DNA of 64,000 nt, taken from an uncultured Alphaproteobacteria bacterium. Its GTDB lineage: Bacteria > Pseudomonadota > Alphaproteobacteria > RF32 > CAG-239. Of the stretch, positions 26,219 to 34,991 are shown one piece after another; position 1 is the first letter of the stretch; every line of letters starts with the position of its first letter. Location: positions 34,043 through 98,042 of the forward strand of contig CAKQNT010000001.1 in NCBI GenBank assembly GCA_934255405.1, in the 5' to 3' direction. Under the pieces are notes generated by a model. The model was not told the origin of the DNA and searched no databases. It worked only from the letters and a program-made list of their open reading frames with translations. The translations under genes were made by a program, and so were the position numbers.

Positions 26219-26785
26219 ATGAAAATACAAAAGATTATCAAGTCTCTGAAACACTACAACCGAACAATTGCCGCAATAGCAACAATCTTGCTGGCAATAC
26301 TTGGGGTGTCGGTTTTTATCTTTAGCGAAGAAGACAACGGGATTAGCGCCGCCGCAGAAGAATTATCAGAGCTTTCCGGCAATATAAGGCACCATTATCA
26401 GGCGCGGCCAGATTATTGGGGACTGAACACGCAAACGGTGATTGATAAAAAGATTTATCCGGCGCAAATGCTGAAAAACGGCAAACTTGTCGGATTTATG
26501 GGCAATACTGTATTGGTTGGTTCCGGAATTGAAGGCACTATGCTGATGCCCGGAGCGCGCAATTTTGATGTTGTTTATAAGGGGCTAAGCTCTAAACAGT
26601 GTGTCGGGCTTGGCAGCCATAAATTTGAGCAAAAGTTTTGGCTGGGTGTCAGCGGCGTTTCTATCTTGAGTGATAATCAGGAAACCTTGTTTAACTGGGA
26701 TGATGAGAACAACCGCCTGCCGATTTCTAAAGCTCAAGCAAAGAAATCTTGCGGAAACAATAGCATTATAATCTGGCATTTCTAA
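26219..26785 (+). CDS. Small N-terminally membrane-anchored protein (188 aa) at end of pilus operon.
   Basis: ATG at 26219 right after the platform gene stop. N-terminal TM. No prepilin G-x4-E motif. Confidence 0.4.
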   Translation: MKIQKIIKSLKHYNRTIAAIATILLAILGVSVFIFSEEDNGISAAAEELSELSGNIRHHYQARPDYWGLNTQTVIDKKIYPAQMLKNGKLVGFMGNTVLVGSGIEGTMLMPGARNFDVVYKGLSSKQCVGLGSHKFEQKFWLGVSGVSILSDNQETLFNWDDENNRLPISKAQAKKSCGNNSIIIWHF

Positions 26786-26922
26786 GAATCGACGCAATCA
26801 ATTTTTGCCTTGAGATAAAGATGGATTGCTTCTCACGGCTAATCGCCGTTCGCGCAATGACATTAGAGAAGATGGCTATTGCAGCTCACTACGTTCGGGG
26901 CTCGGGATAGTGTACTTTTAAA

Positions 26923-26990
26923 AAAAACTGTCACCGCTCCGAGTGGCGAGCATTCTCGCCCGAGGTCAAGCGGTCTTCCGTGTTGATATA
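26923..26990. repeat. Left ~65-bp inverted repeat of GIY-YIG mini-element (contains internal palindrome GGCGAGCATTCTCGCC).
   Basis: Reverse complement matches 27421-27488 with about 4 mismatches. Confidence 0.7.
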
Positions 26991-27044
26991 CTACATTGGA
27001 AAAATAATATATATTGCGTTATTGCACAATGTTTATACACTTAT

Positions 27045-27341
27045 CTACAAGTCACCGCTCAGCTCAGGGTATAAGTCTTTCCATAACGGATTAAGCTGAT
27101 TTATTAATTTTATTTTAGTCTTGCTATAACATTTTTTCAGGTATTTTTCTCGCCTGATAGCTTGTTCTTCGCCATCTATTTTTTCAAAATACACCAGTTT
27201 AAATAATTCATATCGGCTGGAAAATCCAGAAAGTATTTTATTTTTATGCTCATAGACACGGCGAATTAAATCAGATGTAACACCGGTGTAAAACGTAGTG
27301 TTATTTTTATTGGTTAAAATATATACAAACATCTCTTTCAT
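27045..27341 (-). CDS. GIY-YIG nuclease domain protein (UPF0213/YhbQ-like, 98 aa).
   Basis: Motif FVYILTNKNNTTFYTGVTSDLIRRVYEH (GIY...YIG). Confidence 0.7.
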   Translation of the reverse strand: MKEMFVYILTNKNNTTFYTGVTSDLIRRVYEHKNKILSGFSSRYELFKLVYFEKIDGEEQAIRREKYLKKCYSKTKIKLINQLNPLWKDLYPELSGDL

Positions 27342-27420
27342 AATATCAGGTTAGTCTATAATCAGCGCTAAGACAAGAGAATTTTTTCTTAGAATAAAAT
27401 TAAAATTGCTCCTAAACATT

Positions 27421-27488
27421 ATTTTAACAGCACGGAAGATCGCTTGACCTCGGGCGAGAATGCTCGCCGCTCGGAGCGATGACAGTTT
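27421..27488. repeat. Right inverted repeat of GIY-YIG mini-element.
   Basis: See left repeat. Confidence 0.7.
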
Positions 27489-27539
27489 TTTTATTTTATA
27501 TGCAATAGTAAAGAGGCATAAAAAAGAGGATGGAGGCAT

Positions 27540-27577
27540 AAAAAAAGAGGAGAGCCACCACACTCTCCTCTTTTTTA
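27540..27577. terminator. Bidirectional rho-independent terminator (AGAGGAGAG/CTCTCCTCT hairpin flanked by A- and T-runs) downstream of pilin gene.
   Basis: Seen in sequence. Confidence 0.6.
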
Positions 27578-27592
27578 ATCTTATGATTAGGA

Positions 27593-28219
27593 CTAGTAGT
27601 AAGTCCACGTAATCGTACTACCACTATCCTTAGCGGTACATTCAGCAGCAGCTGCTGAAAGTGACAAAGGCAAGCTATCAATTGTGTGCGGTGTACCACC
27701 TTTATCTCCAATATCCTTATCGTCTTTACTCGGAGAAACCGCTATAGACTGCAAACCAGAACCGGCTTGAGAACCCCAGTCAGCAGTAGCTATAGCTACG
27801 CAAGCCTCCAACGGCAAACCTGAATAAGAAACCGTAAACTGACGACTGTCACCACCAGTTCCACCTTGTGTATCTACAGCAACTTCAACTCGTCCGGAAT
27901 AAGCGTTCACAATAGTAGTTGCACCACTACCAGCTCCGGCAGACGCAATACTTGACTGAAGCATATCTCTGGGAATAATACCCATCTGAACCGCAACTTT
28001 GTTACTCAAACCAGCGTAGTTTACGGCAGAAGAATAAAGTGTACGGATATTCATAACCAGCATAGAAATCTGGTCAAGCGTCTTATTAACACGATATTTT
28101 GACATTGCTTTAGAATAACCGGAGATACCACCTATCGAAAGCACCCCGATAATCGCGAGCACGCCGAGCATTTCGACCATCGAACGTCCTGACTGCTCAT
28201 TTTTATATAATATTGTCAT
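27593..28219 (-). CDS. Type IV (class b-like) prepilin. Leader MTILYKNEQSG, mature start RSMVEMLGVLAIIGVLS. C-terminal Cys pair (D-region).
   Basis: Gly followed by Glu at +5 and a 20-residue hydrophobic helix. Two Cys near the C-terminus. Adjacent to the T4bP assembly operon. Confidence 0.7.
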   Translation of the reverse strand: MTILYKNEQSGRSMVEMLGVLAIIGVLSIGGISGYSKAMSKYRVNKTLDQISMLVMNIRTLYSSAVNYAGLSNKVAVQMGIIPRDMLQSSIASAGAGSGATTIVNAYSGRVEVAVDTQGGTGGDSRQFTVSYSGLPLEACVAIATADWGSQAGSGLQSIAVSPSKDDKDIGDKGGTPHTIDSLPLSLSAAAAECTAKDSGSTITWTYY

Positions 28220-33993: not shown

Positions 33994-34991
33994 GAAACAT
34001 CTACAAATAACGGTAATCCGCGAGCCATACGAGTCATTTGGGTTTCGATAGAAGTGCCCAAATTGGGGCGTCCGCTCTTGACAATTCCGCGCACCTGATC
34101 GCCTTTGGTGGTATCGGGGTTGGCGAATAAAAACGAAACCACGGCTTTTTTGATAGTTGTTCCAACCAAACTTTGGTGCAGAACTCCAAGCATACCGCGA
34201 GAAAACAAATCATAGGCCAAATCCTCGCTCATACCGCCGGCAGCGGCATATTTGACAACCGAAGTTATGGCATCTGTAACATTGTTGGCATGAATGGTTG
34301 AAAGAACCAAGTGTCCGGAAGTCGATGCGCGCAAAACTTCGCTGGCCGTATCAGGAGTGCGGATTTCTCCAACCATGATATAACGCGGTTTTGAGCGTAG
34401 TGCCGATTTCAGCGAAGCACCCCAATCTCCGCCCGCCGGCTGTGTCTGCTTGCAGAGCCCCAGCCCTCCGTTAGCGCACTTATAAACTCCATCCAGCGGT
34501 TGCTCATTGGGATCTTCAATGGTATAAGCGAATCCGCCTTCTCTAATCAGATATTCCTTAGTTAAACTGGAGATAGAGGTTGTTTTGCCGGAGCCGGTCG
34601 GACCACTCCACAAAATAAGTCCGGATGCATTTTTTAAGGCCAGCAAATAGCGCTCAAGCTGCTTTGGATAACCCAAAGAAGCAAACGCGGGGACTTCCGC
34701 CGGCATGCGGCGGGCGCAATACTGAATGCCATCCAGTGCAACCGTTCTTTCGACACGATAAAAGATATTATTGTAGACGATTGAATAGCTGGGGTTCTGA
34801 CCATCCCAAGAGCTTTCGACCAGAGCATAAAACTTATCAAAATCTTCCGGCGCAAACTGCATCAAGGCATTAGCAGTCTGTTTATTAGGGATAAACGCTT
34901 GTTTTTCCGGAGTAATATATATGTCGGAGAATTGTGTTTCGGTAATAGTTGTCATGGCCAACCTCGTTTGAAATTTTTGTGATATTGGCAT
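33990..34991 (-). CDS. PilT/VirB11-superfamily secretion ATPase, PilT-like by His-box (GHLVLSTIHAN).
   Basis: Walker A GPTGSGKTT, Asp box MVGEIRT, His box. 333 aa. Confidence 0.65.
   Translation of the reverse strand: MPISQKFQTRLAMTTITETQFSDIYITPEKQAFIPNKQTANALMQFAPEDFDKFYALVESSWDGQNPSYSIVYNNIFYRVERTVALDGIQYCARRMPAEVPAFASLGYPKQLERYLLALKNASGLILWSGPTGSGKTTSISSLTKEYLIREGGFAYTIEDPNEQPLDGVYKCANGGLGLCKQTQPAGGDWGASLKSALRSKPRYIMVGEIRTPDTASEVLRASTSGHLVLSTIHANNVTDAITSVVKYAAAGGMSEDLAYDLFSRGMLGVLHQSLVGTTIKKAVVSFLFANPDTTKGDQVRGIVKSGRPNLGTSIETQMTRMARGLPLFVDVS

Follow-up and report, generated by a model that had tools for sequence, protein, structure and literature searches.

A GIY-YIG nuclease gene between oriented hairpin repeats beside a type IVb pilin gene: a probable Ssn unit in an uncultured gut alphaproteobacterium

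The ssn locus and its nuclease

The window, as the stretch of DNA analysed here is called, comprises 64 kb (64,000 nucleotides) of contig CAKQNT010000001.1 from an uncultured alphaproteobacterium. A compact unit of about 570 bp fills the convergent gap between a type IVb (T4b) pilus operon on the plus strand and a pilin gene on the minus strand. It consists of one short gene between two inverted copies of a hairpin repeat. The gene, ssn, occupies positions 27045 to 27341 of the minus strand (stop codon 27045–27047) and encodes a single-domain GIY-YIG nuclease of 98 amino acids (aa) that resembles SsnA of Neisseria. Both the protein and the orientation of the flanking repeats suggest that the unit belongs to the Ssn family of single-strand nucleases and represents an ssn gene accompanied by its own hairpins.

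The gene corresponds to a 297-bp GIY-YIG open reading frame (ORF) that had been noticed in an initial annotation of the locus. Pfam places the GIY-YIG domain (PF01541) at residues 4–76 (E=1.2e-15) and recognizes no second domain. Residues Y6, Y17, G19, R27, H31, E64 and N83 are invariant in 44 homologues, the window protein included; the Tyr, Tyr, Arg, His, Glu and Asn of this set are equivalent to the catalytic residues of I-TevI. Comparison with the orthologue in a related metagenome-assembled genome (MAG; locus L012) gives a ratio of nonsynonymous to synonymous substitution (dN/dS) of 0.11 at dS=0.34, values that point to purifying selection and hence to a functional gene. The identical protein is encoded on 23 gut-metagenome contigs, and locus L001 is 100% identical to the window. 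Throughout these contigs and the related MAG the gene was found at one locus only.

The description of the protein as 'YhbQ-type' is appropriate only at the level of the superfamily; the Ssn proteins are closer. Solved proteins of the UPF0213 (YhbQ-type) group, which are likewise small, single-domain GIY-YIG proteins of similar length, match the window protein weakly (1zg2, E=9e-4; 1ywl, E=0.14), against E=4e-27 for an orthologue of Neisseria SsnA. A sequence search of the PDB returned these weak UPF0213 matches only and no solved Ssn relative. To our knowledge, an association with hairpin repeats has not been reported for the UPF0213/YhbQ subfamily. The sole match in NCBIfam is sub-threshold: TIGR01453, a model of group I intron endonucleases with a cutoff of 56.05 bits, reaches 19.6 bits over the catalytic part only. 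Homing endonucleases of the I-TevI type have the catalytic GIY-YIG domain in common with the window protein. In contrast to this bare 98-aa domain, however, they measure about 250 aa, add a linker and a DNA-binding domain to the catalytic part, cleave duplex DNA and reside in group I introns or in phages. A homing-type nuclease cassette, one of two forms of mobile element initially suggested for the locus, was rejected: the catalytic domain stands by itself, the intron endonuclease model stays below threshold, no intron or other RNA family is present, and the site is chromosomal and intergenic, not inside a group I intron, an intein or a phage genome.

The hairpin repeat

A repeat search finds the inverted arms at 26921–26993 and 27420–27492, each 73 nt long, 90% complementary and 426 nt apart. 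Pairwise alignment defines a conserved core of 62 nt, from the A-run to a GTG, with 4 mismatches between the arms. The first description of the repeats as near-identical, with about 4 mismatches, is accurate for this core, as are its two further details: a palindrome inside each repeat, GGCGAG-CATT-CTCGCC, is located at 26945–26960 and 27453–27468, and A/T runs bound the outer ends, A8 at 26920–26927 and T7 at 27486–27492. When up to 3 mismatches are allowed, the palindromic 16-mer occurs at these two sites only in the 64 kb. The shuffle control gave an expectation of 0.56, and the 4 matches observed were attained in 0 of 100 shuffles.

Each arm is an oriented element. The sense copy of the upstream arm (27431–27492, minus strand) lies on the ssn coding strand and reads A7-C-tGTC[ATCGCT]CCGAGc[GGCGAG]CATT[CTCGCC]CGAGGTCA[AGCGAT]CTTCCGTG, where single brackets enclose paired segments. 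That of the downstream arm (26920–26982, plus strand) lies opposite the coding strand and reads A8-C-tGTC[ACCGCT]CCGAGt[GGCGAG]CATT[CTCGCC]CGAGGTCA[AGCGGT]CTTCCGTG. One sense copy is thus present per DNA strand, and in each case it lies at the unit's 5' edge. The sense consensus is an A-run, a C and then tGTC[AYCGCT]CCGAG-N-[GGCGAG]CATT[CTCGCC]CGAGGTCA[AGCGRT]CTTCCGTG. Both arms can form a two-tier hairpin, in which an outer stem of 6 bp starts from the A of GTCA and is closed by T-C, and an inner stem-loop is made by GGCGAG and CTCGCC. RNAfold predicts −19.8 kcal/mol (z=−2.0) for the upstream arm and −23.1 kcal/mol (z=−2.4) for the downstream arm. One outer-stem pair differs compensatorily between them, C-G in the downstream and T-A in the upstream arm. 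Over 32 distinct copies of the repeat, pairing is kept in 99.6% of cells and the varying base N is unpaired; the only variable pair, 20/59, covaries (U-A in 18, C-G in 13, U-G in 1). Between the window and L012 the 55-nt arm cores show a single difference, at an unpaired position, against about 27% at synonymous sites of the same comparison. Either constraint or homogenization acts on the arms, which are almost invariant.

Hairpins at both ends of a small gene might act at the level of RNA, as outward-facing intrinsic terminators or as mRNA-stabilizing structures around an otherwise unrelated gene. Read outwards, each arm is indeed a GC-rich hairpin followed by a run of T7-8, and dispersed copies of the repeat, described below, often lie between convergent genes. 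In an intrinsic terminator the T-run would follow the GC-rich stem within 0–2 nt. Here 5 nt separate the stem from the T-run in the ssn arms, and in most dispersed copies (GACAGCTATTTTTTT) the distance is about 9 nt; a terminator scan called neither arm, so that a terminator pair was rejected. The pilin gene, moreover, has a terminator of its own at 27538–27579. No Rfam family matches the arms at the gathering threshold, applied to the entire window and to 16 related loci, or at E<=1 in the stretch 26700–27700; a known structured RNA, an intron included, was rejected on this result. A strand-specific GTCA geometry also recurs around homologues in unrelated organisms, which chance placement of terminators would not yield. 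A purely RNA-level role is therefore considered extremely improbable.

Relationship to the Ssn family

Ssn proteins were described as a family only in 2025; they are about 94 aa long and contain one GIY-YIG domain (CDD cd10448, GIY-YIG_unchar_3) (Chenal et al. 2025, PMC11893778). Their genes are flanked by hairpin repeats, called NTS in Neisseria (CGTCATTCCCGCGMAVGCGGGAATCYRG) and Ssn-related motifs (SRMs, 20–50 nt) in general, and such repeats occur elsewhere in up to hundreds of intergenic copies (PMC11893778). The characterized enzymes, from Neisseria and Wolbachia, require single-stranded DNA (ssDNA), in which they bind the hairpin of one strand and cut just upstream of it, and are inactive on duplex DNA or RNA; in N. 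meningitidis, Ssn lowers transformation by repeat-bearing DNA (PMC11893778). The same study likened the NTS-ssnA-NTS layout to an insertion sequence (IS) and compared it with the repetitive extragenic palindrome (REP) system of REP-associated tyrosine transposases (RAYTs), leaving mobility as a hypothesis (PMC11893778).

The published homology criterion, E<1e-10 with at least 75% coverage (PMC11893778), was applied here against an orthologue from N. gonorrhoeae. A tblastn search of PLSDB (7.3 Gb) with the window protein returned two N. gonorrhoeae chromosomes (E=2e-17, 88% of the query covered), in which the match is a 94-aa ORF amid canonical NTS copies. (Both chromosomes, NZ_CP119140.1 and NZ_CP119142.1, locus L128, are 2.17 Mb long and are filed as plasmids in PLSDB.) By BLASTP this SsnA orthologue and the window protein are 45% identical over 86 gapless aa (E=4e-27), which, as judged from sequence, places the latter within the published limits of homology. 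The other traits of the family are also present. The protein is a single-domain GIY-YIG protein shorter than 150 aa (98 aa) with intact catalytic residues, and oriented hairpin repeats lie within 500 bp on both sides. The upstream hairpin is on the coding strand, 58–104 nt 5' of the ssn ATG, and the downstream hairpin is on the opposite strand at a matching distance. In both sequence frames, that of the window repeat and that of NTS, a GTC precedes a stem that starts at the A of GTCA and is closed by T and then C.

This frame was used as a relaxed structural rule (GTC and an A-started stem, then T and C) to examine 73 metagenomic loci that encode homologues of 47–64% identity, within 200 nt of each gene. 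A coding-strand hairpin of this form occurs upstream at 45 of the 73 loci, an opposite-strand hairpin downstream at 56, and both are present at 39 (53%). The opposite geometry was seen at 4 loci, with about 1 expected from shuffles. The window unit shows exactly the geometry of the majority, and its upstream arm passes the same test. The published SRM pattern, HGTCWYN(0-2)YYVSBRHN(0-5)WNVSBRGN(0-2)RNCYNB, is a search aid and not a definition of the family. It is found on both sides in the same orientation at 9 of the 73 loci (12%), homologues of 47–57% identity being among those flanked by pattern-matching SRMs. Several other loci have long or two-tier variants, such as CGTCATTGCGAG...CGAAGCAAYC. 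The closest protein relatives (65–68% identity; L124 and L126) carry different GTCA hairpins and are uninformative on the specificity for this repeat.

Repeat dispersal in a related genome and among strains

Repeats of this kind in the window are the two arms and one 'type-3' hairpin, all at the ssn locus. The type-3 element (26820–26862, minus strand) is also a two-tier GTCA hairpin, tGTC[ATTGC]GCGAA[CGGC]GATTA[GCCG]TGAGAA[GCAAT]CCATC; it has this single copy in the window and 17 matches in the loci of the related MAG, and in L012 an inverted pair of it adjoins the ssn unit. A stretch on the plus strand at 34033–34064 (GTCATTTGGGTTTCGATAGAAGTGCCCAAATTGGG) is the only other sequence of the window that passes a strict filter for GTCA with a perfect stem of at least 6 bp. 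It is unlike the repeat families and may be due to chance.

The related MAG, CAKQKH01, derives from an uncultured alphaproteobacterium in a Hadza gut sample. Its neighbouring genes are about 80% identical to those of the window at the nucleotide level, and it carries the ssn unit at the same position. A search for additional copies of the repeat, as the initial annotation proposed, found them here. An exact-pattern scan of one genome per species gave 28 matches across many contigs of CAKQKH01 and one match each in two other MAGs, and blastn-short located at least 32 copies in the fetched loci of CAKQKH01, all of them intergenic. In this close relative the repeat is therefore an intergenic family similar to REPs or to miniature inverted-repeat transposable elements (MITEs). 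The copies align to window positions 26881–26988 at 84–89% identity and their 5' flanks are conserved; the segment 26881–26919 (plus strand) is an outer extension of the left repeat module (...CGGGGCTCGGGATAGTGTACTTTT) that many dispersed copies have in common. Among 25 dispersed copies with a long ORF on both sides (crude calls, ORFs of at least 150 aa), 14 lie between convergent genes, a suggestive preference for convergent gaps.

The copies in the MAG are embedded in mosaics of 200–1200 nt made up of several further hairpin repeats. An orthologous intergenic site illustrates the contrast between the two genomes: it is empty in the window (16757–16795) and holds a repeat mosaic of about 590 nt in the MAG (L022, 1329–1928). 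Similar arrays, resembling bacterial interspersed mosaic elements (BIMEs), are found at L012 4950–5470 and L028 560–1250. Palindromes of the TGTCACTCTGAGCG type and canonical 28-nt SRMs occur in these mosaics, as does a second two-tier family, tGTC[ATGCC]TC[TTTGCGGAAG]CATT[CTTCCGCAAA]GTCCA[GGCAT]CTACCG, members of which adjoin many copies of the repeat around ssn in head-to-head orientation.

Within the window's species, strains differ in the number of repeats at the ssn locus itself. The pilin-side repeat (window 27431–27492) occurs once, twice or three times in tandem, with a spacing of about 68 nt (L002, L003, L005, L009, L123). L123 has a truncated gene-distal arm into which the ORF extends, to yield a variant of 100 aa. 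In L007 (1133–1300) a dnaJ-like/fpg/rpsT/dnaA/dnaN region adjoins the far arm instead of the pilus operon, which implies one further copy of the repeat; the orthologous region of the MAG (L033) adjoins a repeat cluster. The L007 junction reflects either a true rearrangement at a copy of the repeat or a join made during assembly.

The distribution of the repeat bears on what the nuclease does. Its main function might be to generate or maintain dispersed hairpins, in the manner of a RAYT with its REPs, and not to restrict incoming ssDNA. A single gene lies between inverted copies of a hairpin whose other copies are scattered through BIME-like mosaics in intergenic DNA, the orthologous site is empty in one species and filled in the other, tandem copy number varies among strains and the copies are very homogeneous; the analogy with RAYTs has been raised before (PMC11893778). 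Yet no mechanism is known by which a hydrolytic GIY-YIG nuclease would rejoin DNA, the one function demonstrated for Ssn enzymes is cleavage, by which repeat-bearing DNA transforms less efficiently (PMC11893778), and the 64 kb of the window contain no copies away from the ssn locus. Spreading of the repeat is thus a rather doubtful primary role, though a live one, and it is an alternative function for an Ssn unit and not a different identity.

Several observations weigh against the assignment of these repeats to the Ssn family. The published SRM pattern has 0 matches in the whole 64-kb window. The window repeat escapes it through a short outer stem (6 bp) and a loop that contains another hairpin; by eye, the 5' HGTCWY and 3' RNCYNB parts fit and the stem/loop middle does not. 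As the pattern is unmatched, the designation of the arms as cognate sites rests on architecture and position. In the window's own species no repeat copy was seen beyond the ssn locus, in the 64-kb window or, in other strains, within up to 10 kb on each side of the gene. Dispersal is demonstrated for the closely related species and hinted at for the window's genome. The MAG also contains canonical 28-nt SRMs (TGTCATTCCGGCGAAAGCCGGAATCCAG; the published pattern matched 13 in its loci) and at least three other GTCA-hairpin families. The enzyme may therefore have targets other than, or in addition to, the arms, and a second ssn gene may lie elsewhere. Finally, the covariation described above comes from one informative pair and probably from few events; it is weak evidence, which fits a conserved hairpin. 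With these points taken into account, we estimate a probability of about 0.85 that the unit is an ssn gene with its Ssn-related hairpin repeats, in the NTS-ssnA-NTS arrangement. Confidence in any particular role in vivo is much lower.

Genomic setting, empty sites and rearrangement

The position of the unit in a convergent gap, part of its first description, is borne out by the flanking genes. The T4b pilus operon (plus strand) includes genes for a secretin, an ATPase and a platform protein, and ends at 26785 with that for a minor pilin. On the other side, the pilin gene runs from 28219 to 27593 on the minus strand and is of the Bundlin/PilS type, as assigned from the ORF list and Pfam. The terminator at 27538–27579, found in the repeat search, is a canonical bidirectional one. 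Between the right arm and this hairpin, a short tandem direct repeat (AATAGTAAAGAGGCATAAAA / AAGAGGATGGAGGCATAAAA) occupies 27504–27543, a stretch that varies among strains. Within the unit, the spacer from the upstream arm to the ssn start codon (27342–27430, minus strand) presumably holds the promoter and the 5' untranslated region. It is about 85–100% conserved relative to L012, with the final 35 nt or so ahead of the ATG identical, and a consensus scan called no sigma-70-like site in it. The spacer from the stop codon to the downstream arm (26983–27044, minus strand) is conserved relative to L012 apart from a few substitutions and indels.

The unit is missing from some relatives. In three related lineages, whose platform proteins are 87–94% identical, the junction between minor pilin and pilin lacks it, and their 13-kb neighbourhoods contain no GIY-YIG gene or GTCA hairpin; two lineages have it. 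The empty site sought in related genomes was accordingly found, at a locus that has also been rearranged. In two of the three empty lineages (L116 and L120) the pilin gene is co-directional with the minor pilin gene and follows it after 137 nt, and the segment 27752–28302 of the window (pilin gene plus about 85 nt upstream) is inverted relative to L116 7782–8300 and L120 7773–8307. In the window, about 800 nt that include the unit separate the minor pilin gene from the 3' end of the pilin gene. The comparison reveals neither a clean insertion boundary nor a target duplication. The neighbouring block, which extends from the second T2SSE gene as far as NMO, is likewise inverted between L116 and L118/L120. 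The pilin region is a hot spot of rearrangement. The repeat is dispersed and empty sites exist, so that the unit is neither unique in its repeats nor fixed in all relatives.

The pilin gene is also more divergent than its neighbours. Among strains L002–L008 it is 74–89% identical at the nucleotide level (L001 9123–9749, equivalent to window 27593–28219), as opposed to 96–99% for most neighbouring genes, 98% for ssn and 94–98% for the minor pilin gene and NMO. A hypervariable gene for a surface protein thus adjoins the unit, a situation also reported for the NTS clusters of Neisseria.

Empty sites, together with the shape of the unit, call for consideration of an autonomous mobile or selfish cassette, in which the arms would be terminal inverted repeats (TIRs) and the GIY-YIG protein, acting as a homing endonuclease or like a transposase, would move the whole 570 bp. 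The geometry of the arms is TIR-like, the unit is absent from the orthologous junction in three lineages and present in two, the far arm in L007 leads into another part of the chromosome, and the IS-like look of such an architecture has been remarked upon (PMC11893778). The L007 junction, however, lies at a repeat copy and is accounted for just as well by recombination or by a join in the assembly. The gene occurs at a single locus in the 23 contigs and the related MAG, and the A8/T7 flanks are inverted and part of the repeat, leaving no convincing target-site duplication. The protein has no DNA-binding or strand-transfer domain. Homing would require cleavage of duplex DNA, which the characterized relatives spare (PMC11893778). 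Strong purifying selection and a position conserved in two species fit a resident, domesticated gene. An autonomous cassette is very unlikely on this evidence.

The second form of mobile element initially suggested, a MITE-like element, fares no better. Neither the interval between the arms nor the gene calls for the surrounding 20 kb or so include a transposase, no direct target-site duplication is present beyond the A8/T7 flanks, and the gene resides at one locus. The more general idea of a compact mobile or selfish element is upheld in part: the dispersed repeat and the empty sites make a selfish origin plausible, but the unit is not a homing cassette and is unlikely to be a MITE or IS.

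Comparison with known systems

The closest parallel to the unit is the SsnA/NTS pair of N. meningitidis and the Ssn family as a whole. They have in common a single-domain GIY-YIG protein of about 94–98 aa, here 45% identical to the gonococcal orthologue, and strand-oriented hairpins on both sides with a 5' GTCA, a stem from that A and a T-C closure. Intergenic dispersal of the repeat, seen here in the related MAG, and a variable surface-protein gene nearby are further similarities. The hairpins differ in build: NTS has a 9-bp stem with a 3-nt loop, whereas the window hairpin is two-tiered and measures 42 nt from the first to the last paired base. The hosts differ as well, since the window comes from an uncultured gut alphaproteobacterium with a T4b pilus that, unlike Neisseria, is not a known naturally competent species.

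RAYTs with their REPs, REPINs and BIMEs resemble the unit in several respects: a single-copy gene lies between inverted palindromic repeats, the repeat occurs elsewhere in intergenic mosaics, and hairpins are recognized in ssDNA, which for the window protein is likely by homology. A RAYT is, however, an HUH/Y1 transposase of the IS200/IS605 kind, and the sole family-supported ORF between the arms is the GIY-YIG nuclease, a hydrolytic enzyme with no relation to it in sequence or fold and no known rejoining chemistry. The two arrangements are analogous, not homologous. MITEs and Correia-type elements are likewise short, dispersed and intergenic, with inverted-repeat content and strain-variable presence. 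Unlike MITEs, which have TIRs, target-site duplications and a cognate IS transposase, each copy of the ssn repeat is a single oriented hairpin, and the two 'TIRs' of the unit are simply two copies of it.

Proposed mechanism

A working model can be drawn from the Neisseria and Wolbachia enzymes. (i) The Ssn protein would bind the folded sense strand of the repeat, and only in ssDNA. (ii) The cleavage site would be located a few nucleotides 5' to GTCA and hence, in this repeat, inside the A-tract. (iii) By the same homology, duplex DNA and RNA should be left alone. (iv) The DNA that is cut is likely to be repeat-bearing ssDNA, either incoming or formed as an intermediate of replication or recombination. 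(v) Cutting may then limit or redirect recombination around repeat-flanked loci, in this case beside the hypervariable T4b pilin gene.

A bolder version holds that, in this lineage, the hairpin-ssn-hairpin unit is a mobile or recombinogenic module that entered the T4b pilus locus with the pilin inversion and now helps to drive diversification of the pilin, and that one Ssn enzyme recognizes several GTCA-hairpin families, the two-tier ones included. Taken as a whole this is speculative and unlikely. If true, it would provide a parallel to the NTS clusters around antigenic genes in Neisseria and would widen the recognition code of Ssn nucleases.

Significance

The ssn unit adds to a known family a new example, with an unusually long hairpin, and does not amount to a novel type of element. 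It extends the founding study (PMC11893778) in three features, which are leads, not demonstrated novelties: a two-tier repeat that escapes the published pattern, at least five GTCA-hairpin families alongside the one ssn gene seen so far in the related MAG, and a site beside a hypervariable pilin gene in a region prone to rearrangement. Since the two-tier repeat escapes the pattern, surveys based on it undercount Ssn-repeat pairs; the relaxed rule detects the flanking geometry at 53% of the 73 loci, compared with 12% for the published pattern on both sides. For enzyme engineering, a putative structured recognition site of 55 nt would be a new specificity. The contrasts of presence and absence at orthologous sites can be used to study how such repeats spread. 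The analysis places an Ssn system, known here from its sequence, in an uncultured alphaproteobacterium of the human gut, where it adjoins a hypervariable T4b pilin gene in a region that has been rearranged between related lineages.

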